From a bacterium (GTDB taxonomy: Bacteria; Bacteroidota; Ignavibacteria; UBA10030): a DNA stretch of 19,927 bases. The DNA is taken from contig JAZDJN010000050.1 in assembly GCA_043803945.1 (NCBI GenBank), positions 1-19,927 of the forward strand. Reading direction: 5' to 3'. Within the stretch, counting starts at the first letter, position 1. The number at the start of each line of letters is the position of its first letter. Positions 3-18,053 of the stretch are shown here, in pieces. The notes beneath the pieces are model-generated. The model ran no database searches, had not been told where the DNA came from, and saw only the letters and a list, made by a program, of their open reading frames with translations. Made by a program: the position numbers and the translations under genes.

Positions 3-875
3 TTTTTTAACTCCCTGTTTGTGTTCTTGGCGCTGTGGTTTTTGGTTGGCGGGGGCCCCCCAAACCCCCACGACCGTACCATTTTTCAGTTTATAGGTAA
101 CGAGTTCTTTTGGATTGATACCGTCGGGGTTCATAATCCCGCCGCGCGAATCACACGCTGCAACGAGTGTCCCTCCGCCGAGCAATTCCTGGTGCAGATA
201 CGCCGCTCGTTGCCCGGCATTTCCGAATCCCTGAATGGCGTATGTCCCGTGGGCATTGACACCTAACACTTTGCATGCCTCCCGTACGGTGATCACGCCA
301 CCCCGTGCGGTTGCGTCGCGGCGTCCCTCCGTTCCGCCAATCTGCTGCGGTTTATCGGTGAGAACACCCGGATGATGATAACCCATGATTGTCTCATATT
401 CATCCATCATCCATGCCATTGTTTGCGGATTGGTATAGACATCCGGGGCCGGAATGTCCTTATCAACCCCAATCGAACGGGCAAGAGCACGGACATAGGC
501 CCGTGAGACATTCTCGAGCTCACGATTCGACATCGTCCGTGGATCGCACACTACACCTCCTTTGCCTCCACCCAGGGGAAGATCCACAACGGATGTTTTC
601 CACGCCATCCATCCGGCGAGTGCCCGAATGGTATCGACGGTTTCGTCGGGATGAAACCGTATTCCCCCTTTCGCCGGCCCGCGTGCATAGTTGTACTGAA
701 TGCGATACCCATGGAAGATTTTTACCTCTCCATTATCCATCCGTACCGGCATAGTAAATTTCAATTCCTTTTGAGGCCAGAGCAGCAGCGCAATCGTGGC
801 AGCATCAAGATTGAGGATTTTAGCGGCTTCCGTTACCTGTTGTTGAAGGACATGAAATGAATTGTACGAACCCAT
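3..875 (-). CDS. gdh: Glu/Leu/Phe/Val dehydrogenase, family-II (Thermotoga/archaeal-like) glutamate dehydrogenase; 3'-partial, runs off the window edge; absent from the ORF track
   Basis: Manual translation from ATG at 875 (RBS AAGGA just upstream) gives MGSYNSFHVLQQQ...GYRIQYNYARGPAKGGIRFHP...WMAWKTSVVDLPLGGGKGG...DIPAPDVYTNPQTMAWMMDEY...GGTEGRRDATARG...AIQGFGNAG...ACDSRGG, with no stop before base 1. GDH similarity decays in the last ~70 nt. Confidence 0.95.
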   Translation of the reverse strand, partial: MGSYNSFHVLQQQVTEAAKILNLDAATIALLLWPQKELKFTMPVRMDNGEVKIFHGYRIQYNYARGPAKGGIRFHPDETVDTIRALAGWMAWKTSVVDLPLGGGKGGVVCDPRTMSNRELENVSRAYVRALARSIGVDKDIPAPDVYTNPQTMAWMMDEYETIMGYHHPGVLTDKPQQIGGTEGRRDATARGGVITVREACKVLGVNAHGTYAIQGFGNAGQRAAYLHQELLGGGTLVAACDSRGGIMNPDGINPKELVTYKLKNGTVVGVWGAPANQKPQRQEHKQGVKK

Positions 876-879
876 ACGA

Positions 880-1071
880 TTATTCCTTCGGCGGGTGTGG
901 TGAATGGTTTTCAGTTTCATCGTCTTCGCGCTTATCAAGAATAATGCGGTACCAGCAGTTCTTGCACATCAGCGCCCGATCGACGCTCAACAATACCTGC
1001 TGCCAGGGACTGAGTTTCTGGCCACAGTGCGGACAGGTATCGATGAGGCTTTCCGATTTTTCTTTATTCAC
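880..1071 (-). CDS. Small zinc-ribbon-like protein (CPHC-x19-CKNC), 63 aa
   Basis: Two CxxC pairs. The GTG start overlaps the upstream stop (GTGAATAA) and its own stop lies 4 nt before the gdh ATG, so it fills the gap exactly, as expected for translational coupling. Confidence 0.8.
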   Translation of the reverse strand: MNKEKSESLIDTCPHCGQKLSPWQQVLLSVDRALMCKNCWYRIILDKREDDETENHSPHPPKE

Positions 1072-4000
1072 TGGGAACCTCAGGTTTCAAAATAATCCCT
1101 CTGCTCTGATGCCCATTTATTTTGATCGTGAGCGGCTTGGTGAAGTGAAACAGTTTTGTAAATGTTTTCATTGCTTCCGGTGTCTGTTGCAAGATCCATT
1201 CCCAATCAAGAAATCCTTGCTGATGCTGCTCATTGATGGTAAAGTATCCTACCATGAAAGAAGTAATATTTTGGAAGAAATGCGAGCCCTGCGATGGTGT
1301 TACCGACATTTCCTTGAATCCGGTCTCGATGATAGCTTTGGCGCCGGCGATCTGTTCCCACGTTACCGGTATGCCCAGCCACGGGTCAAGCGAGCCCCAG
1401 CGGCCTACCCCAATGAGCAGGTAAGGCCGCTGTTCGCTGATTAATTTTGTATTGAATGCCGCAATTTCCTTGGCAACTTCACGGCTCCGAGAGCGATCAA
1501 AAAGATGGTAGTCCACGACGACAACATCCCTGATCCCATCGATGAGTCCATGACCGAGTACCTGATTGCTTTCGCACAGAAGTTTAGAAGTGTCCTGAAG
1601 ATCGAACGTCAGTTCTTCAGGCTCGCGATGCACAACGAGCGGGCGCATTTGTAGCAAGGCAAATTCGTGCGGCTTCTTCGGCATAAAATTGAGATTCATC
1701 GCAAACTCGATCTCCACCGGAGTCCCCATTCCCCAGCTTCCCATATCGAGTAAAAGCTCAATAATCTGAGGAAGTGGGGTAAGGCGGTTCCTGAGAATGG
1801 GATTGAAGGTCACCACACGAATTCCGCTTCGTGCTATTCCGTCATAGATGGCATCATTCTCCGTTGAATACGTTGATCCGACATAATGCAGCGAGCCATC
1901 CCGCTCGGCGACATCGAGACTATGCAACTGCACCATCATATCTTGCGTCTCTGTGCCAAAATCGGAGTTTGCATCGAGCTCGAGTGAAAAGAAGGAGCGC
2001 TGCGAGCTGTTCATCGTCTCCTTGACCGAATAGAATTGGAGAACATCGGCAGGATATTTCGGACAGAACCGGACCGTATTGCCCCCGTCGACAACAGTTT
2101 TCCCAAGGCCCAGAGCAACTGCCACGGTTCCATCGGATGGCTTCTGGGGTGCAATAGTATAGAAGTTATACGACTTTGCTACGCCGGCGATGTCGGGGTA
2201 GAAACGGTTCTCATGGGCCCTCCCAGCCAGCCGCTGAATAATCACCGCCATCTTTTCCTCTTCAAGCCGATAGGAGGTGACACGGATATACTCTTTGGCA
2301 CCCTGGTAGAATGTCGAGGCATAGACACGCTTGACGCTGTTCAAGAGATCATTCAACCGGACAAGAGGATTTGCGTGCAAGTTCGGAATCATATACGTCT
2401 CATACACACCGGCAAAGGGGTGATACTGGGAATCTTCGAGCAAGCTGGAGGAGCGAACCGCCAGTGGTGTATGTATGATCTCAAGAAACGCCGCAAGATC
2501 AGCAAAGATATCAGAAGGAAATTTTTCCGCCTCTAGGAATCGTTTTGTGATCTCACGATCATCCGAACAGTTGAAGGCAAACTCCCGAAGTTGATTCTCT
2601 TCCAGGAATTGATCAAAGACATCGGTACCGATAACCACGGCAGCGGGGACGGAAATATGTATATTCTCAAACCGTTCACGCACATTATAATCATTTACAA
2701 GGGTATTGACAAAACCGAGGCCCCTTGCTTTGCCTCCGAGTGAACCGCCGCCGATCCGGGCAAAACTCGATTCGGGATCGAAGGAATCCTTTGAGAAATC
2801 GGCGATAATACCGCGCTGACGGATGTTGCGATAGTGATGAAGCGAGGTGATGAGATCCTTCCGGAGCGCCTCGATTGTTGGGTAGTCGGTAACCTTTCTT
2901 GGCCTCAGCTTGTCTGCCAACCAGAATTCTGTGCGGGCCTTTAACCAGTTGGAAAAATGATTTCGTTCGGCGTGATACCGGATGCTTGCGGCGGGAACAA
3001 TTCTCAACATCTCCTCAAGGCTTTTCAGATCGTTCGCCCTTCCTGTTTCGGTTCCTTCCGGATCACGGAAAATAAAATCACCAAAACTGAAGTTCCGGAT
3101 CATAAATTGCCGGAGTTCATGGAGGAGCATCGGCGAATCTTTAACGATGAAAGAAGCCCCCACCTCATGAGCCCTCGATTCATTCCCCGACGCATTGGAA
3201 AGAAGAAGAAGAGGAAGATCATCCTGGTTTCGTTTCACCTCGCCTGCAAAGGTAATTCCCGCTTCCGGGTCCTGGGCTCCGTTGTGCGGAAAATCGATAT
3301 CGGAAATTACTCCGAGCATGTACTCGCGATACTTTTCGTAATACTCCCAGGCTTCTTCATAGTTGCTGCAGAGAAGAATTTTAGGGCGTGCCCGCATGCG
3401 AAGAAACTTATGGGTGAGATTGATCCCTTCGGAGATGAGCCTCTGCGATTGTTTGAGGATTTCGGTATAGATGATCGGCAGTATTGAGGAATAATACTTC
3501 ACATTATCCTCGATGACAATCATGGTCTGCACACCGACAATTCTCGTATCGTGTTCAACATTGAGCCGGTCTTCGAGGTACTTTACAATGGCGATGATAA
3601 TGCGGAAGTCCCCCTGCCAGATGAACACCTTATCGAAGACAGAGACATCATGGTTGAGCAGAAGATATTTGAGTTCCCTGTTGTCATGAGCCAGGAGGAT
3701 AATGGGGATATTCAATCCGGATTCTTTGACGAGGCGTGCAAAGTTGATAGCGTGCATATCGTCGATATGCAGAGTGGTGATGATCAGGTCGAAACGGCGT
3801 TCTTCTTTTGCGAGCGTAATCGCTTCCTCACCGCTCGAAACACGGGTAAGTTCAGGGGAGTGGCTCAGATTAAACCCCTGATACTCGTTTCTGATCAACT
3901 CATAGAGCCGGCCATCTTCTTCAAACAGATAGAGATCGTACAGGCTGGAGACCAGCAGAATATTGCTGATGCGGATGCGCATGAGGTTTTGGAATCCCTG

Positions 4001-4075
4001 GAATCGATTGCCGTACCCATGCTCTACCCACAGCGGATCGATTGAACTGATCACCTGTTCGAGTTTATTCTCCAT
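1064..4075 (-). CDS. Receiver-domain / PEP-pyruvate-binding (PPDK_N ATP-grasp) / phospho-His swivel protein, paralog 1 (PEP-synthase-like)
   Basis: PPDK_N motifs GGKARGLG, PLAVRSSSLLEDS..PFAGVYET, MAVIIQ, EIEFA and LLQMRP. Two N-terminal CheY-like folds. C-terminal SQGSHFFQN. Start moved to ATG 4075 (MENKLEQ), which follows a GGAGA RBS; the longer TTG start at 4114 lies inside a terminator hairpin. Confidence 0.9.
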   Translation of the reverse strand: MENKLEQVISSIDPLWVEHGYGNRFQGFQNLMRIRISNILLVSSLYDLYLFEEDGRLYELIRNEYQGFNLSHSPELTRVSSGEEAITLAKEERRFDLIITTLHIDDMHAINFARLVKESGLNIPIILLAHDNRELKYLLLNHDVSVFDKVFIWQGDFRIIIAIVKYLEDRLNVEHDTRIVGVQTMIVIEDNVKYYSSILPIIYTEILKQSQRLISEGINLTHKFLRMRARPKILLCSNYEEAWEYYEKYREYMLGVISDIDFPHNGAQDPEAGITFAGEVKRNQDDLPLLLLSNASGNESRAHEVGASFIVKDSPMLLHELRQFMIRNFSFGDFIFRDPEGTETGRANDLKSLEEMLRIVPAASIRYHAERNHFSNWLKARTEFWLADKLRPRKVTDYPTIEALRKDLITSLHHYRNIRQRGIIADFSKDSFDPESSFARIGGGSLGGKARGLGFVNTLVNDYNVRERFENIHISVPAAVVIGTDVFDQFLEENQLREFAFNCSDDREITKRFLEAEKFPSDIFADLAAFLEIIHTPLAVRSSSLLEDSQYHPFAGVYETYMIPNLHANPLVRLNDLLNSVKRVYASTFYQGAKEYIRVTSYRLEEEKMAVIIQRLAGRAHENRFYPDIAGVAKSYNFYTIAPQKPSDGTVAVALGLGKTVVDGGNTVRFCPKYPADVLQFYSVKETMNSSQRSFFSLELDANSDFGTETQDMMVQLHSLDVAERDGSLHYVGSTYSTENDAIYDGIARSGIRVVTFNPILRNRLTPLPQIIELLLDMGSWGMGTPVEIEFAMNLNFMPKKPHEFALLQMRPLVVHREPEELTFDLQDTSKLLCESNQVLGHGLIDGIRDVVVVDYHLFDRSRSREVAKEIAAFNTKLISEQRPYLLIGVGRWGSLDPWLGIPVTWEQIAGAKAIIETGFKEMSVTPSQGSHFFQNITSFMVGYFTINEQHQQGFLDWEWILQQTPEAMKTFTKLFHFTKPLTIKINGHQSRGIILKPEVPSE

Positions 4076-4092
4076 CAATCTATCTCCAGCAG

Positions 4093-4129
4093 AAAAAAAA
4101 GGGGAAACAGGCAAAGGCTCTGTCTCCCC
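4093..4129 (-). terminator. Intrinsic terminator between gdhA and receiver-dikinase paralog 1
   Basis: Minus strand reads GGGGAGACAG-agcctttgc-CTGTTTCCCC followed by T8. Confidence 0.85.
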
Positions 4130-4153
4130 ACACCATTGGACTGGTCGAACTGT

Positions 4154-5641
<1,488 letters not shown>

Positions 5642-5696
5642 TTACTGAAAGTGTAGGGGAAGAATAGGAAGAAGGATAGTGGTAAACGGATGGATC

Positions 5697-5720
5697 TTGT
5701 GTAGGGAATTCCCTACACAA
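5697..5720. promoter_or_regulatory. Perfect 24-bp palindrome, candidate operator upstream of gdhA
   Basis: TTGTGTAGGGAATTCCCTACACAA is its own reverse complement. An extra half-site, GTGTAGGG, sits at 5651-5658. It is about 180 nt upstream of the start codon. Confidence 0.55.
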
Positions 5721-5793
5721 AAATCGGTGCAGAAATGAACGGAAGATTCATCACGGAGTGTCTCTCACTTGCGGTTTCCAATACTAACCCGAA

Positions 5794-5843
5794 GGCGTCC
5801 CGCCGAGGGAATTAGCGAAATTCTTATGTTCGGCGAGGACGCC
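5794..5843. repeat. GC-rich REP-like hairpin downstream of the peptidase-like gene
   Basis: GGCGTCC-CGCCGA ... TCGGCG-A-GGACGCC inverted repeat with an inner GGGAATT/AATTCTT stem and no U-tract. Confidence 0.55.
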
Positions 5844-5891
5844 CTCGCACTAGTGCATCGATCTGATAGTTCTTTTTGATTGTATAGAGAT

Positions 5892-7585
5892 TTACTTCAT
5901 TAAGACCATCTTTCCATTGGCGATCAATGATTTCCCGCCACTCAGAGATTGAGCAACAAAGCGATAGAGATACGTACCGCTGGAGATACTCCTTCCTGCT
6001 GCATCTTTCGCATTCCACACTACGCTATGATAACCGGCTGACTTCTGTGCCTGCACGAGTGTTGTGACCTTGCGTCCCATCAGATCATAGACCTCAAGTG
6101 TAACTAATGCATTCTGAGGCAGTTGATAAGACAGAGTAGTCGTAGGATTGAAGGGATTTGGAAAATTGCCGATTGCAAACTCTGTTGGCAATTGATCAAG
6201 CTTGCCGTTGACAAGTTGACCCGGCATTATTCGTGGTTCGGGAAGCGACACTGTACCTACGACAGTGGCAGGCACATAATCGGACGTTGCGCCTTGATAG
6301 CACGTTCGGACTTTATAAAACACCATCTCATCTGTCGATGTGCCTGTAGCGATGCAATCAGGATCAGTCCAGGAATTTGAATTGGGTTCAGCAGAAGCGA
6401 CTAACTCATATGGCTGGTATTTGACTGTGCGATAGATCTCGTAACCTATACCGCTATTCTGATAGGCAGTCCATTGTATGACATATGTTGACCAACGTTG
6501 GCGACCGCGGTTACGTTTTGTGGAGGAAGGGGTGTTCGTGAGAAACGGGCTGTATATGTATCATTGCCGGTGGGTAAAAATGTATTGTTGCTCATATTTG
6601 TTGATATGGTATTTCCATTTTTCTGCCAATCGATAAATGAGTATTGGATTCCGTCTACCTGTTGCGGCGAAATTGCAGAGACAGCAATGCCATTTCGATA
6701 TCTGACCTTATTGTGGAGGGATGGAGAGACAATAGTACTTTGTGAAACCGATATCTGTCCACCACTAAAATCATTTTCTACCGTTACGTCATATTCTTCT
6801 GAAAAGTTTGCTTGATATGTACCCGCCACCGATGGAATCGATATTCCCATACTCGTTATCAGATTTCCAGGTGTAGACCAATTGTCAAATTTCATCGTAT
6901 ATCCGCTTTGTTGTTGATCATCAATTGCCTGAACAGATACTGGGAATTTATTCCATCTCCAACCGGGCTCGTAGCCCCCAGAGGGGATTGAACGAGTCGT
7001 ACCGTCCACGATCATGTATCCGTCGTTAAAACTATTATTAAGTGTAATCGCATATATTGGATTGTGGATATTTCGAGTATTTGCCTTATCAGTTGTCGTA
7101 AGATAAAGTGTTTGCCCTCTGGAAGCAGGATACATGATAGAAGGAAAATCCAGGTTGCCAATCGTTACATAAAACAAGTGTCCAAATTCATGCAATATTG
7201 TTGTCTGGAGATCATATAAATAAGGATCTCCTGAGAGAGACCACTCTGACCAGTTATTAATATAAATAAGGGAAGACGAAGGTGCATGACCTGGTTCACT
7301 CCCCAGGTCGGTGAATTCAACATAAATGTTAGGTCCCGATTCATTGTACTCCATCGTAATTACATCGGAGGCATTGGTCCATTCCGTAATTGCCCCACGG
7401 ATGAGCTCAAGTATTTCATTCCTTATCGAATTTTGATCATAGATCCAGGTATTTCCAGATTTTATACGAGTTGGTAGTGTTCCCGTGAGAGCGACTCGAT
7501 ATTCTACACCGCGCTGAACCTGTTGGGAGAACACAATATCTATGGAGAATACCATCATCGTGAAAATAAGCAGACTCTTTTTCAT
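5892..7585 (-). pseudogene. Secreted matrixin/metzincin-like peptidase + B-repeat-like domains + FN3 + T9SS-type C-terminal domain, split by one frameshift near 6481-6487
   Basis: Signal peptide MKKSLLIFTMMVFSIDIVFS (ATG 7585, AAAGGA RBS), TILHEFGH and Met-turn SIMYP. PLPPQNVTAVANVGQH continues in another frame as VIQWTAYQNSGIGYEIYRT..WTD..VFYKVRT (FN3-like) into ORF 5892..6326, which ends NFPNPFNPTT..GKMVLMK. The span is 1694 nt, not a multiple of 3. Confidence 0.85.
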
Positions 7586-7747
7586 CAGAATATCCTTTCG
7601 TTGTTGGTTTTTGCTCAAATTATTTTGTACCGTTCACAAGGACAAGGAAGCAAAAGAGCCCTATGTGCGAAAATAGTCGCACGAACCGAGGTTAGTAGCC
7701 TCGATGCATTATTTGCAGGATGACAGGAACCTATTGTTTCTTTTTCT

Positions 7748-7786
7748 CTTAAGGCGGTGGTTGCATCACTGCCTTAAGTTTTTTTT
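7748..7786 (+). terminator. Plus-strand intrinsic terminator (opposite to all flanking genes)
   Basis: CTTAAGGCGGTGGT-TGC-ATCACTGCCTTAAG followed by T8. Two G-U pairs form only in the plus-strand RNA, and the minus-strand version is followed by an A-rich tract. Confidence 0.65.
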
Positions 7787-7809
7787 ATATCTACTTGTGA
7801 CCTCTCTAT

Positions 7810-8877
7810 TTATTTTCCATGTATTACATAGCTTCTCCAACCATCTGTCCCGGCAATGAATACTTCTATTCCATCAGTCCATACTGCCCAGAAATCTCCC
7901 ATGCTCTGAAGGTGTTCATATCTAAACCAATCTCTTCCGTTAAAGTGATAGGCTTGCCCGCCTCCACCAACTGCTAAGAAATTATCTCCACTCGTTCCGC
8001 CAATATCTATAAAGAATTTTTCTCCCTCCCGATAGTGTATTCTTTCCCAAACACTTCCTGTGTATCTATAAATACCGACTCCACAGGAATAGAGCTTACC
8101 ATCAAGGAATAATAATTTTGCCGTTCCAAATTTATAATCGATCTGGTTGTAGACAAGTGTAAACGAGTCGACGATTAGCCAATTTTCTCCATTCCACTTA
8201 TAAATGGAATGATAGGAGGTATCTTCTATACCTACATCTTTCTTATAGCATAAGGCATATACAGCTTGTGGTGAGATTCCTACAATATCATTAATATGAT
8301 CGATGTTGGCACCTATGGTAGCATTCCGCCAGTTTATCCCATCGTAATGGAAAAGTGTAGGTCCACTTCCTCCAACCCAGATATCATTCGTCGACGCTCC
8401 CCAGAGAGCAGTCAAGATTCGTCCGCCAGGAGTTACCATCTCTCGCCATGAGACCCCATCATAATTCATAATGAAACTGCTATCGATAAAGGTCGGTGGA
8501 GGATTAGGATTATAATCTGATTTTGAACCAATGATGAAGACATTCTTGGAATTGAAGCCAAATATTTTTCTTAAACTTACTGATCCTTTGATTTGACCCC
8601 CGTCAATTATGTGGTAGTTTACATTACTCCAGGACTTCCCATTATAATGAAACACGCAACGACCACCAGATGCATGGCCAGCCGCATAAACATCAGAGGC
8701 TGATGTGCCCCAGATATCGTACAACACTAACTGATCAATATTATTCCCGTTGAGGGTATCTATTGTCCAAGAGAGTGCACGTAAATCCTTTACCTTCGTG
8801 ACTGGTTCAGTGGAGTGTTTGCAGGATAGGCAGGTCAGAAGCAGGAAAGAAAAGAAGAGAAAAGTAGTATTTTTCAT
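7810..8877 (-). CDS. Lipoprotein with repeated beta-propeller blades (function unknown)
   Basis: MKN + hydrophobic stretch + lipobox CLS|C. Repeats of the form L..IWG.S..DVYAAG...FHY.G..W occur about 6-7 times. Visibly AT-richer than the gdh genes. Confidence 0.85.
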   Translation of the reverse strand: MKNTTFLFFSFLLLTCLSCKHSTEPVTKVKDLRALSWTIDTLNGNNIDQLVLYDIWGTSASDVYAAGHASGGRCVFHYNGKSWSNVNYHIIDGGQIKGSVSLRKIFGFNSKNVFIIGSKSDYNPNPPPTFIDSSFIMNYDGVSWREMVTPGGRILTALWGASTNDIWVGGSGPTLFHYDGINWRNATIGANIDHINDIVGISPQAVYALCYKKDVGIEDTSYHSIYKWNGENWLIVDSFTLVYNQIDYKFGTAKLLFLDGKLYSCGVGIYRYTGSVWERIHYREGEKFFIDIGGTSGDNFLAVGGGGQAYHFNGRDWFRYEHLQSMGDFWAVWTDGIEVFIAGTDGWRSYVIHGK

Positions 8878-8960
8878 AGACCTGTTCGTATAAAAAGACG
8901 ACTGTTCAAGTATGCACCTTCAACGAAGCTGCTCCTCTTCACAGGCACTTCTTTTTCACG

Positions 8961-9237
8961 GAGATCGAACGGTTCACAACCTCACATACAGTGCACTGCT
9001 ACAATATGAAAAAAAAACGAAGTCAAGGTTTTTTTCATTCATGATTGTGAAACTTGATTGCTGTAAGTCTTCTCAATGCGTGCTGTGGCAAAATACCAAT
9101 GTGAGAAGAGAGACGAGAGATGTGAGATGAAAGTACCAGATTGCAGGAGACAGACTGAAGACAACAGAGAAAAGGAACAAAGCGCCGAACCGTTCACTCA
9201 GACCAGGATTACACATTGAAGTGAACGGTTCGATCTC
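8961..9237. repeat. Segment bounded by 17-bp inverted repeats, with internal 7-mer tandem repeats (MITE-like)
   Basis: GAGATCGAACGGTTCAC (8961-8977) matches the reverse complement of GTGAACGGTTCGATCTC (9221-9237) with 1 mismatch. A third copy, CGAACCGTTCACT, is at 9186-9198. GWGAGAN x4 at 9101-9128. Confidence 0.45.
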
Positions 9238-9248
9238 AAGCTTTTAGA

Positions 9249-9292
9249 ACCTTCGGAAGGTCTGTGGATTTATCTGGTAATCCTTCCGAAGG
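9249..9292. repeat. REP-like pair of short palindromes just downstream of paralog 2
   Basis: ACCTTCGGAAGGT ... CCTTCCGAAGG; each unit is nearly self-complementary and the two are inverted copies of each other. Confidence 0.55.
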
Positions 9293-9322
9293 GCGCTCAG
9301 GCTCGATGCAATGAATTGGCAT

Positions 9323-12307
9323 CTATTTTCTCCCCGGTTTCAGGATCACACCCTTATTTTTATGTCCATTGATCTTTGCAATCAAAGGAGTATCGAACCG
9401 TAAATGACGCACATATTTGTATTCCTCGAGCGGTCGCTGCTCGCGCAGCCATTCCCAGTCGATGAATCCCTCATGATGCATCACACTGACGGTGAAATAG
9501 CCGACCCGGAAGGAGGTGATATTCTGGAAGAAATGAGAACCCTGGGAAGGGGTGACATCGATATCCCTGAAACCAGTTTCGACGATAACACGTGCACCGG
9601 AGATTTGGTCCCACGAGACCGGTATACCGAGCCATGGATCGAGACTGCCCCATCGGCCAACACCGATTAAAAGGTACGGCCTCCGGTCGTCCACGAGTTT
9701 TGAATTGAGCACACTGACCTCATACGCTGCTTCAACGCTGCGACCGCGATCATAGCAATCAATATCGACATAGACGATGTCATACATGTCCTGGATAACT
9801 CCATTCCCGAGAACCTGTTGGCTCTGACAGATGAGATCCTCCACCATCACTTTTTCCACATCCAACTCCTCCAGTTCGAGACTCAGAACAAGGGGGCGGA
9901 TTTGAAGCATGGCGAATTCTTTCGGCAAGACAGGAGGAACATTCATATTCACTGCAAACTCAACTTCAATGTGAGTACCCATACCCCACGAGCCCATCTC
10001 AAGGATGAGATCCAGGATCTCGGGAAGCGGGAAGATCTTATGTTTCAAGACAGGAGCGAACGTCACCACACGTTTTCCCATACGAGAAACGCCATCGTAG
10101 ACCGCTTCATCTTCCGGCGAGTAGGTGGATCCCACGTAGTATATGGTATTATCCTCCTCCGCTTTCATCAGTGTGTACCGCTTCACAAGCTCTTCTGGAT
10201 TCAGATGGTAGCGATGATCCACTTTCGCCGTTAAGTCGAGAGCAAGAAATTCCTGCTGTGCATTCCGAATAGTTTCTGTGGTTGAAAAGAATTGAAGAAG
10301 ATGGCGCGGATATTTCGGACAGAAACGAACTGTATTCCCTCCCTCAACCACGGTCTTTCCCAAACCAAGTGCCACCAGGGCAATCCCATCCTCCGACTTC
10401 TGCGGAGGAACGGGATAAAAGTTATACGACTTTGCAACTCCGGCAAACTCGGGATAGAATCGATTGTGGTGATTCGAACCAACCATCCGTTGAATGATCA
10501 CCGCCATTTTTTCTTCTTCAAGCCGATAGGGTGTGGCTTTCATGTAATCTCGCGCCTGTCGGGAATATGTCGAGGCGTACACAAGTTTCACGCTGTCAAG
10601 CAATTCCTGCATCCGGACATCGATATCGGGATCGTTGTTCGGAATCATGAACGTCTCGTACACACCGGCGAAGGGCTGGTATTGTGAATCTTCCAGCAGG
10701 CTCGATGAACGGACCGCAAGAGGGAAGGTGATGATCTCCAGAAATTCTCTCAGTTTCACCAGCACCTCAGGAGGAAAATACTGGGCGTCGAGAAATCGGG
10801 CCTTCAACTCCGTATCGTCATTTGCCTGAAGGACGTAATTGTCGAGCTTATTCTCTTTGAGAAATCTGTCAAACACATCGGTCGCAATCACGACCGCAGA
10901 GGGGACACTAATCTCGACCCCTTCAAATCTATCTCTGACACTGTAGTTATTAATGAGCGTATTGACAAAGCCAAGGCCGCGGGCTTTTCCACCAATCGAT
11001 CCCGTACCAATGCGGGCCAGGCTGTTATGCGGTTCAAACGATTCTTTCGTAAAGTCGGTAATAACGCCACGCTGCCGGCCTTCCCGATATACGCGAATCG
11101 AATCCAGCAATTCTCTTCGAAGCTCATAGACGGAGGCAAAGTCTTCAACCTTGTGCGGCCGCAATCGATGGGCGAGCCAGAACTCCGTTCGGGCTTTTAA
11201 CCAGTTGGAGAAGTGATTCCGCTCAGCATGGTAGCGTATCGATTCATCTGGAACGACCCGTAATTGTTCCTCCAGCGTGATCAGATTTGTCGCTCTCCCA
11301 ACCTCCGAACCGTCGGTCAGGCGAAAGATAAAATCACCGAAGCCGAAGTTGTTCATCACATAGGCACTCAGTTCATGGAGCAGGCGCGGCGATCCCTTTT
11401 GCAGAAAGGCCGTTCCGAATTCACGGGCAAGCTCTGCCGCTTCGACATTACTCGACTGCAGCAGGAATGGAATGTCTTCCCTCTGTTTACGAACAGCACG
11501 TGCAAACGCGAAACCAGCCTCAGGATCCTTCACACCATTGTGCAAAAAATTGATATCGGAGATGATGCCGAGGACATAGTTCTCATGCTTTTCAAAATAG
11601 GACCATGCTTCTTCGTACGTTGAACAGAGAAGGATTTTCGGCCGTGCACGCATTCGGAGAAACCGGTGTGTGAGATTAATCCCTTCGGAAATCAACCGGC
11701 GCGATTGATTGAAGAGTTCGGTATATAGTAATGGGAGGTAGGAAGAGTAGAACGTCACATCATCTTCGACAAGGATGATGCATTGAACACCGACATTTTT
11801 CGTATCGCTCTCGACGTTCAGTTTGTCCTCAATATACTTGATCATGGCAACAAGCAAACGATAGTCGCCATGCCAGATAAAAATACGATCGAACATCGAA
11901 GTGTCCGAACTGGTTGTCAGTTCCAGGCGCTCACGATTGTCATACGCCAGCAAGAGAATTGGCGTTTCGATTCCCATGCTCTTGACGCGTTGGGCAAACC
12001 GAATCACATGCATATCCTCGATATGCAACGTTGTGATGATAAGGTCGAAATGTTCTCCCGCTGCGAGCAGCTCGAATGCTTCATCGCCGCTTGTGACATG
12101 GGTAATTTCGGGCGGGTGACTGAGGTTGAGAACCTGGAACTCCGAACGGATCAACTCATAGAGCTGGCCATCTTCCTCAAAAAGATACTGATCGTACAGG
12201 CTTGCCACCAACAGAATGTCGCGCACCTTATACCGCATTAATTTCTGAAACGATTTAATGCGGCTTCCATACACATCTTCAAGGTTTAGTTGATCAAGAC
12301 GTTCCAT
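9323..12307 (-). CDS. Receiver-domain / PPDK_N ATP-grasp / phospho-His swivel protein, paralog 2
   Basis: Collinear with 1064..4075 over the whole length: GGKARGLG, PLAVRSSSLLEDSQYQPFAGVYET, HAERNHFSNWLKARTEF, GRWGSLDPWLGIPV and SQGSHFFQNITSF. Confidence 0.92.
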   Translation of the reverse strand: MERLDQLNLEDVYGSRIKSFQKLMRYKVRDILLVASLYDQYLFEEDGQLYELIRSEFQVLNLSHPPEITHVTSGDEAFELLAAGEHFDLIITTLHIEDMHVIRFAQRVKSMGIETPILLLAYDNRERLELTTSSDTSMFDRIFIWHGDYRLLVAMIKYIEDKLNVESDTKNVGVQCIILVEDDVTFYSSYLPLLYTELFNQSRRLISEGINLTHRFLRMRARPKILLCSTYEEAWSYFEKHENYVLGIISDINFLHNGVKDPEAGFAFARAVRKQREDIPFLLQSSNVEAAELAREFGTAFLQKGSPRLLHELSAYVMNNFGFGDFIFRLTDGSEVGRATNLITLEEQLRVVPDESIRYHAERNHFSNWLKARTEFWLAHRLRPHKVEDFASVYELRRELLDSIRVYREGRQRGVITDFTKESFEPHNSLARIGTGSIGGKARGLGFVNTLINNYSVRDRFEGVEISVPSAVVIATDVFDRFLKENKLDNYVLQANDDTELKARFLDAQYFPPEVLVKLREFLEIITFPLAVRSSSLLEDSQYQPFAGVYETFMIPNNDPDIDVRMQELLDSVKLVYASTYSRQARDYMKATPYRLEEEKMAVIIQRMVGSNHHNRFYPEFAGVAKSYNFYPVPPQKSEDGIALVALGLGKTVVEGGNTVRFCPKYPRHLLQFFSTTETIRNAQQEFLALDLTAKVDHRYHLNPEELVKRYTLMKAEEDNTIYYVGSTYSPEDEAVYDGVSRMGKRVVTFAPVLKHKIFPLPEILDLILEMGSWGMGTHIEVEFAVNMNVPPVLPKEFAMLQIRPLVLSLELEELDVEKVMVEDLICQSQQVLGNGVIQDMYDIVYVDIDCYDRGRSVEAAYEVSVLNSKLVDDRRPYLLIGVGRWGSLDPWLGIPVSWDQISGARVIVETGFRDIDVTPSQGSHFFQNITSFRVGYFTVSVMHHEGFIDWEWLREQRPLEEYKYVRHLRFDTPLIAKINGHKNKGVILKPGRK

Positions 12308-12381
12308 AGAGTATCATTTTAGAAGATTCGTATTTACTCAATATGTCTAATTATGTATTGCATGTCTCATTTTTTTCTCCA

Positions 12382-12506
12382 CCCCCCCAAAGGGGGCCGG
12401 CCCGCTCCACCGAAGCGGGAGCGAGGCTAGAGGGAGATTTCGAAGATTTTCTTTCTCTTGAGTAAAACCAAATCCCCCTTCCTCCCTTTATGAAAGGGGG
12501 AAATTT
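12382..12506. repeat. REP-like composite of CCCCC..AAAGGGGG hairpins
   Basis: CCCCCCCAAAGGGGG, CCCGCT..AGCGGG, AGGGGAGATTT..AAATCCCCCT and CCCTTTATGAAAGGG nested inverted repeats in intergenic DNA. Confidence 0.5.
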
Positions 12507-12660
12507 ACTCCTCATACGTACGTCTGTTCAGTATCCAATTGATACAGTGTTTTACTCAGGTGATACAGAAGTCACATTGAGCCAGTGAATATCATGCTAA
12601 GCAATTACGAAAATTCAAAAACATTTACCGCAACAGGAATCTGGTCAACAAGCAACATTG

Positions 12661-12757
12661 CCACAGAGTCACCGAGAACACAGAGAACATCATTTAAAAT
12701 TATTGACAAGAGAACAAACATCTATCATTCTCGGTGACCTCCGTGTCTCCGTGGTGG
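12661..12757. repeat. Inverted arrays of 9-bp units (CACAGAG-type miniature element)
   Basis: CCACAGAGT CACCGAGAA CACAGAGAA, an AT-rich spacer, then TTCTCGGTG ACCTCCGTG TCTCCGTGG. Confidence 0.6.
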
Positions 12758-12792
12758 ACTTTTCGGCCAGGTTTCTAGCCCCACCCTAATAT

Positions 12793-12835
12793 AAAAAAAG
12801 AACGCGCAGGAAGGCAATGAACCTTTCTACGCGTT
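12793..12835 (-). terminator. Intrinsic terminator after the second family-I gdh
   Basis: Minus strand AACGCGTAGAAAGG-ttcattg-CCTTCCTGCGCGTT followed by C and T7. Confidence 0.8.
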
Positions 12836-12861
12836 GAAGAATGTGCGCATGGAACAATGAG

Positions 12862-14202
12862 TTATACCAAACCCTGCTCCAGCATAGCGTTGGCAACCTT
12901 TAAAAAGCCGCCAATATTTGCACCAACCACATAATTCCCCGGCTGACCGAATCGTTCCGCGGTCTGGACACAGGTCTTATGAATGTTGATCATAATCTGA
13001 TGCAAACGCTGATCGACCTCTTCCCTCGGCCAGGGGAGGCGCATGCTGTTCTGACTCATCTCCAGTCCAGACGTAGCAACACCACCGGCATTGGATGCCT
13101 TGCCGGGAGCGAAAAGGATTCCGGCATTGTTGAAGATTTTAAATCCTTCCATCGTGGTCGGCATATTGGCACCTTCGCAGACACACATACAACCATTCTT
13201 GACAAGTTCCTGAGCATCTTGTTCATTCAACTCATTCTGCGTAGCACACGGAAGCGCAATATCGACCTTTACACTCCAAGGTCGTCGATTCGGAACAAAT
13301 TCAGCCTTGAATTTTTCGGCATAGTCTTTCACCCGATCATTTGCACTCGCCCGAAGCTCGAGCATATAGTCAACCTTCTCGCCCGTCACTCCATCTTTAT
13401 CATAGACGAATCCATCTGGTCCGGAGAGAGTTACAACTTTACCGCCGAGCTGGTTCACCTTGAGAACGGCACCCCATGCAACGTTCCCGAATCCGGAAAC
13501 AGCAACAGTTTTTCCCTCAAAGGTTTGCCCCTTGGTCTTGAGCATTTCCTGTGTAAAGTAAACAACACCAAATCCTGTTGCTTCAGGACGGATAAGCGAA
13601 CCACCCCAATTCAATCCTTTACCCGTGAGGACGCCAGTGAATTCTTTGGTAAGGCGTTTGTACTGACCGAAGAGATATCCGATTTCGCGTCCACCGACTC
13701 CGATATCGCCGGCTGGAACATCAATGTCGGCACCAATGTGCCGGTATAACTCCGTCATGAAACTCTGGCAGAAGCGCATCACTTCGTGATCGCTTTTTCC
13801 TTTCGGATCGAAGTCCGATCCACCCTTGCCGCCACCCATAGGAAGTGTGGTGAGACTATTTTTGAAGACCTGTTCGAAGGCAAGGAATTTCAGGATGCTT
13901 AACGTGACCGAGGGGTGAAATCGTAATCCACCTTTGTAGGGGCCGATTGCACTGTTCATCTGAATACGGAATCCACGGTTCACATGGATGTCGCCCTGAT
14001 CATCCATCCAGGGGACACGGAAAATGATTACACGTTCCGGCTCGACGATCCGTTCCAGAATTCGTGCTGCGCGATATTCAGGATGACGCGCAAATACCGG
14101 TTCGAGTGATTCGAAGACTTCTTCTACAGCCTGAAGAAATTCAGGTTCATTTGCATTCTTCGCTTTTACCTGTGCGTATACATTGTTAATATATTCGGAC
14201 AT
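12862..14202 (-). CDS. gdh: Family-I glutamate dehydrogenase with NAD-type (Clostridium symbiosum-like) fingerprint, 446 aa
   Basis: Same catalytic-domain motifs as gdhA. The coenzyme domain reads VSGFGNVAWGA..KVVTLSGPDGFVYD. GAGGA RBS before ATG 14202. Confidence 0.95.
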   Translation of the reverse strand: MSEYINNVYAQVKAKNANEPEFLQAVEEVFESLEPVFARHPEYRAARILERIVEPERVIIFRVPWMDDQGDIHVNRGFRIQMNSAIGPYKGGLRFHPSVTLSILKFLAFEQVFKNSLTTLPMGGGKGGSDFDPKGKSDHEVMRFCQSFMTELYRHIGADIDVPAGDIGVGGREIGYLFGQYKRLTKEFTGVLTGKGLNWGGSLIRPEATGFGVVYFTQEMLKTKGQTFEGKTVAVSGFGNVAWGAVLKVNQLGGKVVTLSGPDGFVYDKDGVTGEKVDYMLELRASANDRVKDYAEKFKAEFVPNRRPWSVKVDIALPCATQNELNEQDAQELVKNGCMCVCEGANMPTTMEGFKIFNNAGILFAPGKASNAGGVATSGLEMSQNSMRLPWPREEVDQRLHQIMINIHKTCVQTAERFGQPGNYVVGANIGGFLKVANAMLEQGLV

Positions 14203-14415: not shown

Positions 14416-14458
14416 AAAAACACAAAAGGGACAATCTTGTTGGAATTGCCCCTTTTGT
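14416..14458 (-). terminator. Intrinsic terminator (possibly bidirectional) after the beta-propeller/Ig gene
   Basis: Minus strand ACAAAAGGGGCAAT-loop-ATTGTCCCTTTTGT followed by GTTTTT, 19 nt after the stop codon. Confidence 0.8.
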
Positions 14459-14477: not shown

Positions 14478-14752
14478 TTACTTAATCAAAATGACTTTTT
14501 TAGAAGAGATGTAACGTTGCGTGCTTTCAACCGATTCCGTGAAAAGCCTCACTAAATAGATTCCGCTCGGCTCGCTGTTGGCAACCCAACGCACTTCATA
14601 GTATCCCTGTGAGCGTTCACCATCGATGAGCTCAGCGACCACTTTCCCAAGCATATTAACAACTTCAAGCCTGACCTTGCTCCGTTCCGGAATACCAAAA
14701 CGAATCTTGGTTGATGGATTGAAGGGATTCGGATACGCTTCATGCAAGATGA
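14478..14752 (-). repeat. Copy 1 of a ~275-bp duplicated C-terminal sorting-domain segment
   Basis: Aligns without gaps (offset 3301) to 17779..18053, with long identical runs and mostly synonymous differences. Confidence 0.85.
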
Positions 14753-17423
14753 GGTCATCCGGAACCAGGTTTAAGAACTCCTCGATACCCGTCGGAGTAG
14801 AAGTGTCCACGGTGAAGGCATTTGATAGCGTTCCAGAACCTCCACCGGGCGCTCCGTTTGTCACAACAACAGAACGTGCGCCGGTTGCGGCTGTGGTGGC
14901 AATCGTAATGTTTGCGGTGAGCTGCGTCGGGCTTGTGACAAGAACCTGATTCACCACGATATCCGCGCCAAAGCTTACTGTAGTCATGCCCGTTGCAAAA
15001 TTCGATCCTGTTACAACCACATTCAGTTTGCTGCCGCGTCCAGCTTTTGCAGGTTGAATGCCCACAATACTCGGAAGTGCGTTACCGACAGTAAAGAGAT
15101 TCGATTTCATGACCGTCCCTCCACCAGGGGAGCTATTGATTATCCAAATATCTCTCGCTCCAAGCAAAGCATTCATACTGATTATGATATTAGCCGTCAA
15201 TTGTGTCATGCTATTTATGGAAAGAGAATTTATTGTGATCCCTGCATCTCCTGCAAAGCTCATTGATGTCACACCTGGGAAAAAATTGGATCCGGTCGCA
15301 GTGAGATTCATTGTCTCGCCGCGATTACCGCTCGAGGGTGAAACCGATAGAAATGTAGGCGCCGGATTGGTTATAGAGAATGTTTGCGAGGATACAATAG
15401 AACCCCCACCTGTAGCTACATTCGTAGCCGTAATTGTGCGAGGACCGGTCACCGCCTCATATCCAATCGTGAGATTGGCAGTGAGTTGTGCCGGACTGTT
15501 GACAGTAACGGAATTCACTGTAACGCCGATTCCAAAGTTGATGCTCGTTACCCCCTGGATGAAGTTTGTGCCTGTGATGACAACATCTAATGTCTGTCCC
15601 CTCATACCCGAAGTTGGAGTGAAGCTGGTGATTGCTATTGCTGAGCTGATAGCAAATTCCGAAAGAGGGCGACGCCAGACAGCGCTTCCACCAGTCCCGG
15701 CATAGAGGTTACTTCCACTCACTACCAATGCATTGATCGTCAGATTATTCAATCCGGTGCTTACAGAATACCAATTTGTGCCATTGTTCGTTGAGAGGTA
15801 TACGCCTCCGCTATAAGTTCCGGCAAAGAGATTGGACCCGCTTACTGCGAAGGTCTGGGTCTCACTCGTTGAGACATTTGTCAGTTTGCTCCAACTGATT
15901 CCATCATCCGACGAAGAATAGATCATTCCTGCGCCTAATCCTGCAAATATTTTCCCTTCACACATGCCAAGAGAATAGATGTGTTCCTTCGAGAGATCAC
16001 CTGAAGTAGGCCCCACCCAATTCGCTCCGTCATCTGTTGATCGATAAACACCGCTTCCTGTTCCAACAAACACGATTCCATTTTTTGCTATGAGGCAGTT
16101 AACACTCTTGTTTGTTAAACCGGTATTCATCGGGAGCCAGCTCGCTCCATAATTGTCGGAACGAAAAACTCCTCCTCCGTAAGTTCCAGCAAACAGTTTT
16201 TGACCATTGACTGTAAGCGCTCTAACATCAGATGTTGTCAATCCTGTATTCACAGAATTCCAGGTCGATCCCTTATCATTAGAAAAATACACTCCATTTT
16301 TCGTTCCGATAAAAAACCTGCTATCGCTGATTAATATGCGAGTGATATATATCTCAATACCCGAATTCGCAGGCTCCCAAATTATTCCATCATTTGTCGA
16401 TCTATGGACACCGTCATTGGTGGTGCCTGCATAAATTGTTGTTCCATCGGCAGCTAAAGCTATAACAGTGGAGGCGTTGATCCCATCACTGGCAGAGGTC
16501 CAATTAACGCCATCGTTAGTAGAACGAAATACACCTCGACTCCATGTACCAGCAAAGAGAGCGCCTCCATTGAGAAAGAGGCAAGCGATGGCATTGCTTT
16601 TCAATCCAGAAGTGTACACATCCCAGCTCGATCCATTATTGGTTGTTCGATATACTCCGCCACCCCAACTGCCGACATAGATTATTCCTCCCGAGGCAGT
16701 CATAGAATAAATGCTCTTATTTGGTATCCCTGAATTCACCTCCGACCAGCTTGCTCCATCATCGGTAGAACGGAAAATACCGCCACCCCAGGTCCCGGCA
16801 AAAAGATTTCCCGCAGTGGCAGCGAGACAATACACACTTGTATTAGTCAACCCTGTGCTTTTCGAGACCCAACTTGTGCCGTTATCGGTTGTGCGAAAAA
16901 CGCCATTATAGGTTCCTACGAAAATACTTCCATTGTAGATAGCGAACGAGTATATAATATTATCTGTCACCCCGGTATTTGCCGGACTCCAACTTGCCCC
17001 ATTATCTGTTGAACGAAAAACTCCTCCTCCGTTAGTCCCTGCAAAAAGAAAAGATCCGTTAACAATAAGAGTACGAATGCTGAGATTGGTCAATCCGGAG
17101 TTCGATACAGTCCAATTAGCCCCATTGTCGATAGAGCGAAAAACACCTCCACCATAAGTGCCGGCAATTACATTTGCGCCACTAATGGCAAGAGCATACA
17201 CTCTACTGGATGTCAGTCCTGTGTTTACCGAAATCCATTTTGTGCCATTATCCGAAGACCGAAAGATTCCGCCATGTGTTCCAACAAATAGATTTGAGCC
17301 GCTTACTGCAAAACAATTGATAGGTCCACCTTGCGGTCCACTTGTGGGTATCCACTGGGAGAATGCAAAGGAGGGGCAGATAAGAAAAAACAGTACGATA
17401 CTGAAGCGTGATGAGGTGTGCAT
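14478..17423 (-). CDS. Secreted protein: BNR/Asp-box double beta-propeller (14 blades) + 3 IPT/TIG-like Ig domains + T9SS-type C-terminal domain
   Basis: Signal peptide ending ..AFS|QW. Fourteen ~39-aa repeats of the form FAGTxGGGVFRSxDxGxxW. Three ~94-aa P..G.RG.T....TG.NF..G.T repeats. C-terminus AYPNPFNPST..KKVILIK. Confidence 0.92.
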   Translation of the reverse strand: MHTSSRFSIVLFFLICPSFAFSQWIPTSGPQGGPINCFAVSGSNLFVGTHGGIFRSSDNGTKWISVNTGLTSSRVYALAISGANVIAGTYGGGVFRSIDNGANWTVSNSGLTNLSIRTLIVNGSFLFAGTNGGGVFRSTDNGASWSPANTGVTDNIIYSFAIYNGSIFVGTYNGVFRTTDNGTSWVSKSTGLTNTSVYCLAATAGNLFAGTWGGGIFRSTDDGASWSEVNSGIPNKSIYSMTASGGIIYVGSWGGGVYRTTNNGSSWDVYTSGLKSNAIACLFLNGGALFAGTWSRGVFRSTNDGVNWTSASDGINASTVIALAADGTTIYAGTTNDGVHRSTNDGIIWEPANSGIEIYITRILISDSRFFIGTKNGVYFSNDKGSTWNSVNTGLTTSDVRALTVNGQKLFAGTYGGGVFRSDNYGASWLPMNTGLTNKSVNCLIAKNGIVFVGTGSGVYRSTDDGANWVGPTSGDLSKEHIYSLGMCEGKIFAGLGAGMIYSSSDDGISWSKLTNVSTSETQTFAVSGSNLFAGTYSGGVYLSTNNGTNWYSVSTGLNNLTINALVVSGSNLYAGTGGSAVWRRPLSEFAISSAIAITSFTPTSGMRGQTLDVVITGTNFIQGVTSINFGIGVTVNSVTVNSPAQLTANLTIGYEAVTGPRTITATNVATGGGSIVSSQTFSITNPAPTFLSVSPSSGNRGETMNLTATGSNFFPGVTSMSFAGDAGITINSLSINSMTQLTANIIISMNALLGARDIWIINSSPGGGTVMKSNLFTVGNALPSIVGIQPAKAGRGSKLNVVVTGSNFATGMTTVSFGADIVVNQVLVTSPTQLTANITIATTAATGARSVVVTNGAPGGGSGTLSNAFTVDTSTPTGIEEFLNLVPDDLILHEAYPNPFNPSTKIRFGIPERSKVRLEVVNMLGKVVAELIDGERSQGYYEVRWVANSEPSGIYLVRLFTESVESTQRYISSKKVILIK

Positions 17424-17648
17424 AAAGAATCTCCATAAGAATGAGTGGTGGGAAAAGAAAGAGACACATAAAATCGATACGCTATGATATTTCTATAACG
17501 GTTCTCGGAATCAGAGCTTAAGGGAGGTATGGATATTCTCGTGTACTCCTAATTACCTAAGCTGTGACTTTTGCAGCGATGCAACCTTGATCTTCGAGGA
17601 CACATATACATGCTCGCTGACGTTCTTCGTGCTTCCGCCCAAAAAATG

Positions 17649-17692
17649 CCTGCCTGCTGCTTGCCTGTCGGCAGGCAGGGCGGACAAGCAGG
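17649..17692. repeat. REP-like CCTGCCTG..CAGGCAGG palindrome, apparently nested
   Basis: Inner CTTGCCTGTCGGCAGGCAGG (17660-17679) sits inside an outer CCTGCCTG...ACAAGCAGG. Confidence 0.55.
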
Positions 17693-17778
17693 TGAGCCTG
17701 CAATTATACTAACGATTACGCTGAGTAGTTACATGAAATTCTATCCTGATGAAATAGTCTCTATTTAATTTTCCTCCG

Positions 17779-18053
17779 TTATTTAATGAGTATTACTTTT
17801 TTCGATGCTACATACCGTTGTGTGCTTTCAACCGATTCCGTAAAGAGCCTCACCAAATAGATTCCGCTCGGCTGGCCGTTGGCAACCCAACGCACTTCAT
17901 AGTAGCCCTGTGAGCGTTCACCATCGATTAGCTCAGCGACCACTTTCCCAAGCATATTAACAACTTCAAGCCTAACCTTGCTCCGTTCCGGGATACCAAA
18001 ACGAATCTTGGTCGATGGGTTGAAGGGATTGGGGTATGCTTCATGTAAAATGA
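17779..18053 (-). repeat. Copy 2 of the duplicated C-terminal sorting-domain segment
   Basis: Protein is identical to copy 1 from ILHEAYPNPF through EVRWVAN. Confidence 0.85.

Follow-up and report, generated by a model that had tools for sequence, protein, structure and literature searches.

Why do two glutamate dehydrogenase (GDH) genes of one bacterium each stand before a gene for a protein of about 1000 residues that joins receiver domains to an ATP-grasp? The question is raised by a stretch of 19,927 nucleotides from an Ignavibacteria genome (GenBank assembly GCA_043803945.1, contig JAZDJN010000050.1). This stretch, here called the window, is an entire contig (C50, 19.9 kb) of a 5.5-Mb genome whose nearest named relatives are Ignavibacteria-type metagenome-assembled genomes. 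The window encodes two family-I enzymes, GDH_A and GDH_B, a third GDH, presumably of archaeal type, GDH_C, a small CxxC protein and two large paralogues, RD2 and RD1, which follow GDH_A and GDH_B, respectively. RD1 and RD2 share 59% identity, and the genome has no further copy. An earlier note on this DNA, made from its letters alone, had called the pair receiver-dikinases and had read them as dedicated, ATP-dependent regulators or modifiers of GDH. We find that the association of RD with gdh is genuine, statistically overwhelming and phylogenetically broad, and we consider it very probable that RD is functionally coupled to GDH.

How far does the linkage between the two genes extend? At E <= 1e-30 a homologue search returned 1284 clusters (50% identity), and no curated model for the RD family was found. 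From 314 relatives, 79 loci were kept, which contain 88 RD genes; the 78 genes with at least 1600 bp of upstream sequence were testable. A GDH gene on the same strand ends within 400 bp upstream of the RD gene in 41 of these 78 cases. The number rises to 49 when the limit is set at 3 kb, and to 55 when a GDH anywhere in the locus is counted. When either side and either strand are allowed, a GDH lies within 1 kb in 39/67. Adjacency is seen under 11 phylum labels: Ignavibacteriota (15/17), Bacteroidota-labelled records (7/7), Acidobacteriota (5/13), Spirochaetota (5/11), Bacillota (3/3), Calditrichota (1/3) and, with 1/1 each, Myxococcota, Pseudomonadota, Bdellovibrionota, Zixiibacteriota and Eiseniibacteriota; unlabelled records contribute 4/13. 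Clustering of the 1052 open reading frames (ORFs) of the loci placed GDH in 45 loci, an undercount due to antisense shadow ORFs that displaced some GDH genes, and every other neighbour family in at most 10. A second sample was drawn from 401 species-representative genomes of the same GTDB phylum, 78 of which have an RD match; 64 were searched for a GDH domain, the genome of the window and 13 others that have only weak partial matches being set aside. Here a GDH domain ends within 600 bp upstream in at least 53 of the 78 RD matches, 14 GDH matches being absent from those listed. Both samples bear out the adjacency of RD homologues to gdh that the earlier note had named as a check on its proposal, the first of them across many phyla. 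As the genomes, of 2-5 Mb, carry 1-7 GDH-domain matches each, we estimate the chance of finding a GDH as the immediate upstream gene at well under 1%. Strong GDH matches are present in 64/64 RD-bearing genomes, and a GDH exceeding 35% identity to GDH_A occurs in 0/20 same-class genomes without RD. The earlier note's statement that Bacteroides genomes carry a gene annotated as PEP synthase beside gdh found no support: matches at E <= 1e-30 occur in 0/87, 0/61 and 0/21 genomes of the largest families in the phylum sample; excerpts of two papers (PMC12596196, PMC4595636) call BT_1971 a catalase.

Which part of the protein does this linkage follow? Some Ignavibacteria encode a receiver-less paralogue of ~580 residues, which starts at the equivalent of RD2 residue ~418 and keeps all the core motifs. 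Ten of 12 such paralogues lie within 240 bp downstream of a GDH, in this case a family-II-like enzyme 49% identical to GDH_C. As the receiver-less paralogues also follow GDH, it is the ATP-grasp/His core, rather than the receivers, to which the link is attached. The family has further variants. One locus (L089, G185:C4, 1600-7837) encodes a family-II-like GDH of 428 residues at 1600-2883, a receiver-less RD-like protein of 579 residues at 2913-4649 and a 1063-residue protein whose gene overlaps the latter by 7 nt and which combines PPDK_N, GRWGS and G-T-H-F-F motifs with a C-terminal Pol-beta-type nucleotidyltransferase domain; this arrangement, with weaker matches in the phylum sample, hints that modifying enzymes associated with GDH form a wider family. 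A Cloacimonadota locus (L043, 900-10901) has three consecutive RD-like genes behind a family-II-like GDH, two with matches of ~570 residues and one full length.

Each type of RD keeps to its own type of GDH. RD2-type genes follow all 19 GDH_A-type genes, which form an Ignavibacteria-only clade of 19 rows (support 100/100). The GDH_B-type genes, a multi-phylum clade of 18 rows (support 100/100), stand in all 18 cases before RD1-type genes or their relatives in other phyla. Each of these partner sets makes up one side of a strongly supported branch (100) in the RD tree, a PMSF quick tree, and the type-specific partnership suggested earlier is thereby upheld. What kinds of GDH are involved? Among solved enzymes GDH_A is nearest to the NAD-GDH of Clostridium symbiosum (616 bits versus 598 for the Escherichia coli NADP-GDH) and GDH_B to the NADP-GDH of Corynebacterium glutamicum (585 bits versus 520 for C. 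symbiosum). The NAD-type and NADP-type labels previously given to the two proteins agree with these nearest solved enzymes, their only footing, and should be read as presumptive; they are not mirrored by NCBIfam, where both proteins pass NF006929, 'NADP-specific GDH' (764.5 bits for GDH_A and 752.8 for GDH_B; cut-off 536). GDH_C, of which the window holds 291 of ~420 residues, matches GdhA_Arch best in NCBIfam; the score, taken over 271 aa, is 341 bits and the cut-off 750.

What sort of protein is RD? Residue counts are taken from an alignment of 101 diverse full-length relatives and follow RD2 numbering; domain limits are listed in Table 1. Two receiver folds and a middle domain precede the core. 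The first receiver is the one of the two that Pfam detects, matching Response_reg with 34.5 bits in RD1 and 22.7 in RD2. Its acceptor position, assigned from Pfam coordinates and motif register, is occupied by M in 53, T in 17 and F in 8 of the 101 sequences, and the acidic pair is replaced by S/A-S; because the acceptor Asp is missing, we designate this domain a predicted pseudo-receiver. The second receiver retains the full set of residues, namely E181 (96/101), D182 (84/101), D251 (90/101), S/T285 (96/101; S285 in RD2) and K304 (95/101), and its residues 173..327 superpose on many receivers with Z 13-14 and a root-mean-square deviation of 1.9-2.2 Å. It is, as judged from these residues, a canonical receiver whose predicted phospho-acceptor is D251. 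The middle domain bears a weak Pfam likeness to DUF5752, and an atlas search returned DUF5752-type clusters only, at 0.84, which is under the tool's trust level.

The core begins with an ATP-grasp (PF01326, PPDK_N; E 3.4e-36 in RD2 and 3.8e-38 in RD1), whose motifs G439 G440 K441, R533 S534 S535 and Q802 are invariant or nearly so. In the last 190 residues R885 is kept in 101/101 sequences and H925 in 99/101, the latter within a QG[ST]HFF motif; in the AlphaFold2 model of RD2 (pLDDT 92, pTM 0.87) a helix begins at H925. By VIA-align, the RD2 core (414/418..940/992) superposes on phosphoenolpyruvate (PEP) synthase (2ols, Z 26.6), on rifampin phosphotransferase (RPH; 5hv3, Z 26.3) and on pyruvate phosphate dikinase (PPDK; 1dik, Z 19.0), and each superposition spans both the nucleotide-binding and the histidine domain. 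When the C-terminal domain was folded alone, phosphohistidine-type domains took 7 of the top 9 ranks (Z 5.7-7.3); these seven are RPH (7.3), PPDK (twice, its carrier domain at 7.0), the C-terminal domain of pyruvate kinase and Enzyme I (three times, 5.7-6.1). By fold and context, the last domain is a putative divergent swivel domain. A Foldseek search with this domain alone gave nothing below E 1e-3, and no Pfam family is common to more than 2 of 58 RD C-terminal domains.

Is RD then simply a PEP synthase or PPDK fused to a receiver? Relatives are annotated as 'PEP/pyruvate-binding domain-containing protein' or 'PEP synthase/PPDK', and the match to PPDK_N is real. A plain PEP synthase, which the earlier note had named as a possible refutation, is nevertheless ruled out, and we give the fused-enzyme explanation next to no credence. 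Pfam detects neither the PEP-utilizers_C barrel nor, in RD1 or RD2, the mobile PEP-utilizers domain (PF00391) at E up to 10, and the chain ends right after the His domain, ~190 residues past the ATP-grasp. The PEP synthase models of NCBIfam give 40-61 bits against cut-offs of 598-883; the best score is 61.1 bits (NF004881, cut-off 883), and TIGR01418 reaches 42.7-47.2 against 739.75. The RPH model NF041857 fares similarly (31.7 and 26.1 bits, cut-off 999), and in RD the His domain comes directly after the ATP-grasp (807/808). Across NCBIfam, RD scores tens of bits where cut-offs are 500-1350. RD thus falls outside each named family, and the models place it as a predicted new branch of the PEP-synthase/PPDK/RPH superfamily. 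Like RPH (Listeria; 5hv1/5hv3), PEP synthase and PPDK, it has an ATP-grasp followed by a putative swivel-type domain with the His at a helix start, and it retains their GGK and RSS(S) motifs. Unlike them, it has no rifampin-binding domain or PEP/pyruvate barrel, its His domain is invisible to sequence models, and it adds ~430 N-terminal residues made up of two receiver folds and the middle domain. Our literature searches found no paper linking the RD family to GDH. A REC-PPDK combination, possibly that of RD, is catalogued in response-regulator censuses, the available portions of which give no function, GDH link or domain dissection for it.

Based on these observations, we propose a model in which RD may be a response-regulator-gated enzyme acting directly on the GDH protein encoded by the adjacent upstream gene, a reading to which we give an even chance. 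ATP would be bound by the ATP-grasp and a phosphoryl group loaded onto H925, which would swivel as in the structural relatives. The phosphoryl group would then be passed to GDH, or else the cycle would drive a change in bound GDH. Phosphorylation of D251 by a sensor kinase would switch the core on or off, and where a catabolic-type GDH and an anabolic-type one share a cell, both could run without a futile cycle. That the action is specifically a phosphorylation of GDH is a more tentative suggestion. In its boldest form, which we also advance with some diffidence, the model would make RD the first ATP-driven phosphohistidine enzymes of PEP-synthase type with a protein substrate, a two-component-gated family of GDH kinases or dikinases that switches isoenzymes in at least 11 phyla.

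Why should the target be a protein? A metabolic dikinase that takes as substrate a small molecule from the glutamate/2-oxoglutarate node or some other metabolite, is co-transcribed with gdh as part of one pathway and has its activity tuned by the receiver would also account for the gene order. The structural relatives PEP synthase, PPDK, RPH and HpeI use non-protein substrates, and amino-acid enzymes are found nearby: an aminotransferase downstream of RD1-type genes in four loci and a 2-oxoacid:ferredoxin oxidoreductase in another. We nevertheless regard this as unlikely and favour a protein target, because three GDH lineages that share their metabolites each keep their own RD type, and because the RD core has no visible substrate-binding domain, whether after or between the core domains. 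Besides GDH, moreover, no second pathway enzyme is conserved beside RD. Precedents for parts of the proposed role exist. In Enzyme I of the phosphotransferase system, including EI-Ntr, a swivel phosphohistidine domain hands its phosphate to a protein, and the nitrogen-related form, EI-Ntr, includes a sensor domain linked to the nitrogen status. The likeness of the RD C-terminal domain to the Enzyme I N-terminal region is weak (the Z of 5.7-6.1 given above); Enzyme I is charged by PEP via its barrel, whereas the RD core is an ATP-grasp that would use ATP, and no HPr-binding helical subdomain was identified in RD. Dedicated enzyme-modifying regulators are known in AceK for isocitrate dehydrogenase, GlnE for glutamine synthetase and PpsR/PDRP for PEP synthase/PPDK. 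Their logic, in which a dedicated ATP-using protein covalently switches one enzyme, resembles that proposed here; they share no homology with RD, which differs in being receiver-gated and for which modification of GDH is a proposal. GDH itself is controlled, or used as a sensor, via a partner in the cases of mycobacterial GarA, Bacillus GltC-RocG/GudB and Thermus GdhA-GdhB-APRTh. These partners belong to families unrelated to RD, and none has an ATP-grasp or phosphohistidine core.

Several observations weigh against a direct action of RD on GDH. The characterised members of the superfamily phosphorylate small molecules or glucans and not proteins, the exception being Enzyme I, which uses PEP. 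The swivel match is at the level of fold only, a Z of ~7 being common by the tool's own note, and 0/58 RD C-terminal domains match any Pfam family at E < 0.04, PEP-utilizers included. The RD-linked GDHs look ordinary: their profile can be aligned over the full length of the E. coli and C. glutamicum enzymes, and they show no extra domain or insert relative to solved GDHs. At least a third of the RD genes lack a gdh nearby. In 23 of the 78 cases the locus yielded no GDH, the loci without one including 8/13 from Acidobacteriota and 6/11 from Spirochaetota, and no adjacency was seen in Cloacimonadota (0/4), Planctomycetota (0/1) or Krumholzibacteriota (0/1). In six gdh-less Acidobacteriaceae loci a glycogen/starch synthase gene (Glyco_transf_5) stands directly upstream on the same strand, in the place of gdh. 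Could the gdh link therefore be one of shared regulation or inherited gene order only, with RD acting elsewhere, for example on a glucan, like the plant glucan-water dikinases? The six synthase loci, the RD genes without a GDH and the likeness of the middle domain to DUF5752, a family of unassigned role, would fit. The six loci are closely related and amount to one lineage; gdh adjacency recurs under 11 phylum labels with specificity of RD type for GDH type; RD and family-I GDH are jointly absent; and Pfam finds no carbohydrate-binding module in RD. We therefore hold this explanation to be improbable and retain GDH as the favoured target. Downstream of RD the Acidobacteriaceae loci carry LMF1-like, amine-oxidase, Ser/Thr kinase and aldehyde dehydrogenase genes, and the neighbours of RD in the other gdh-less loci are heterogeneous.

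Trees of the two partners add a further qualification. When the RD topology is imposed on the GDH tree, the log-likelihood falls by 43.7 units (p-AU 0.0137 in the approximately unbiased test, the tested group having been defined from the RD tree), and the strict co-duplication of GDH and partner that the earlier note had envisaged is rejected. Instead, RD seems to have duplicated in this lineage, one copy being recruited to a different, older GDH lineage. Recruitment to another GDH lineage is again a pointer to a GDH-directed role. Where might the specificity for a partner reside? Seven of 11 clade-specific RD positions fall in residues 1-172, and the partial correlation with GDH distances is 0.355 for these residues and at most 0.09 for the other domains; adjacent genes are co-inherited, so matching trees, clade-specific sites and distance correlations of this kind overstate co-evolution. 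As weak and non-independent hints, these figures point to the N-terminal pseudo-receiver as a possible docking surface.

What would gate the enzyme? A gene for a Cache-HAMP-HisKA-HATPase sensor kinase lies directly downstream of RD in a cluster of eight spirochaete loci, in one of which the order is GDH-RD-kinase, and a HAMP-PAS-HisKA_3 kinase occupies the same place in a Melioribacteraceae locus. Because ordinary sensor kinases directly follow RD in these loci, a phosphorelay input to RD is plausible. The dependence on ATP and the phosphorelay link claimed earlier gain support in so far as the ATP-grasp residues are invariant, the second receiver is intact and kinases occur in some loci; they do not extend to the first receiver, which has no acceptor Asp. 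By Pfam, no sensor kinase adjoins RD in the window or in its probable continuation on another contig of the genome (C37), and the same is true of most loci. This distribution, together with the presence of a phosphohistidine-type domain and a canonical receiver in one chain, would suit a self-contained phosphorelay, in which the ATP-grasp loads H925 and the phosphoryl group passes to the protein's own D251, so that RD would be a non-canonical histidine kinase whose output is non-covalent binding of GDH. Such a scheme appears to us improbable, given the ordinary kinases just described and given that the receiver-less paralogues retain the entire core together with the link to gdh, which implies that the core has a role without a receiver. 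Direct action on GDH, gated from outside by a kinase, is the reading that we keep. A nitrate-stress fitness table of Desulfovibrio G20 (PMC4001038) lists the cluster Dde_0602-0605, which encodes a histidine kinase, a receiver protein, a PPS-like protein with a recognisable mobile domain and a protein phosphatase; this is a further case of a PPS-like protein linked to signalling, which may or may not be kin to RD.

How are the genes arranged in the window itself? ORF listing and Pfam give the minus-strand order GDH_A, RD2, a three-ORF insert, GDH_B, RD1, CxxC protein and GDH_C, and all the genes named in the earlier note were found in their places (Table 1), with the start of GDH_C corrected from 938 to 875. 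The full array also occurs in single-contig genomes of the sample, for example G337 and G097.

Table 1. Genes of the window between positions 3 and 14202, with the predicted domains of RD2 (in residues, indented under the gene)
Feature	Position	Strand	Length	Basis and remarks
GDH_A, family-I glutamate dehydrogenase	12862..14202	-	446 aa	Pfam ELFV_dehydrog_N + ELFV_dehydrog
RD2	9323..12307	-	994 aa	Pfam Response_reg + PPDK_N
 RD2, predicted pseudo-receiver	~28-172
 RD2, predicted canonical receiver	~173-320
 RD2, middle domain, DUF5752-like	~321-432
 RD2, ATP-grasp, PPDK_N	~433-807
 RD2, putative swivel His domain	~808-994
Insert, three ORFs	5892..8877	-
 Insert ORF	7810..8877	-	355 aa
 Insert ORF	6446..7618	-	390 aa
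 Insert ORF	5892..6326	-	144 aa
GDH_B, family-I glutamate dehydrogenase	4154..5623	-		Pfam ELFV_dehydrog_N + ELFV_dehydrog
RD1, RD2 paralogue with matching domain order	1064..4114	-		Pfam Response_reg + PPDK_N; likely ATG start 4075
CxxC protein, CPHC...CxxC, zinc-ribbon-like	880..1071	-	63 aa	GTG start
GDH_C, putative archaeal-type (family-II-like) GDH, N-terminal part	3..875	-	291 aa	Both ELFV Pfam domains; truncated by contig end

The ORF of GDH_B opens at TTG, and its true start is probably further in. RD1, the CxxC gene and GDH_C are tightly coupled, as had been claimed: the RD1 stop and the CxxC start overlap by 8 nt (1071..1064), and the ATG of GDH_C sits 4 nt past the CxxC stop at 880. 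The earlier statement that each family-I GDH directly precedes its own paralogue is right as to order and type pairing and does not carry over to coupling of GDH_A with RD2. These two are not coupled, because a spacer of 554 nt (12308-12861) separates them, compared with 42-348 nt in adjacent pairs of related loci. No Rfam family reaches its gathering score anywhere in the window, this spacer included, and a promoter and terminator scan gave weak consensus matches only, apart from one terminator-like hairpin (14458..14422) upstream of GDH_A. That hairpin separates GDH_A from two large predicted cargo proteins of the type IX secretion system (T9SS) upstream of the module (14478-19926), both with a Por_Secre_tail; one carries Sortilin/BNR and DUF6242 domains, the other TIG and Qn_am_d_aIII. 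The insert between RD2 and GDH_B is specific to this genome and lies outside the RD-GDH module. Nine related loci lack it; there, 57-354 bp separate the RD2-type gene from the start of the next GDH, versus 3.7 kb here. Its GC content is low (0.41-0.45), its 355-aa and 390-aa ORFs belong to no family, and its 144-aa ORF has FlgD_ig and a T9SS tail.

The small CxxC protein recurs with the module. Its gene lies between RD1-type and GDH_C-type genes in six loci, and seven sequences of the protein, drawn from several phyla, show no variation at the four Cys or at 18 further columns; comparison with zinc-ribbon families gave weak matches only. In four other loci (L016, L025, L026 and L027, ~15570-16955) the CxxC and GDH_C pair is replaced by a class I/II aminotransferase gene 21-69 bp after the RD1-type gene. 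The missing C-terminus of GDH_C is probably encoded at the end of contig C37 (L087, 12398-12846; ELFV_dehydrog positions 112-241). The match contains one TAA near the contig end, perhaps an assembly-end artefact, and downstream of it lie genes for a YdjM-like protein, an S9 prolyl oligopeptidase, an RDD protein and an S15 peptidase.

What are the implications for the control of glutamate metabolism? GDH is a meeting point of carbon and nitrogen metabolism, and to our knowledge how bacteria with several GDHs avoid opposing GDH activities is poorly understood outside a few model organisms. If RD modifies GDH, it would represent a new class of enzyme-directed regulator and would bring a new class of substrate to the PEP-synthase superfamily. 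A sensor kinase would thereby also gain direct access to an enzyme of central metabolism. RD, with its receiver-less and nucleotidyltransferase-bearing cousins, would then decide which way flux runs through the glutamate/2-oxoglutarate node, and would do so in at least 11 phyla.

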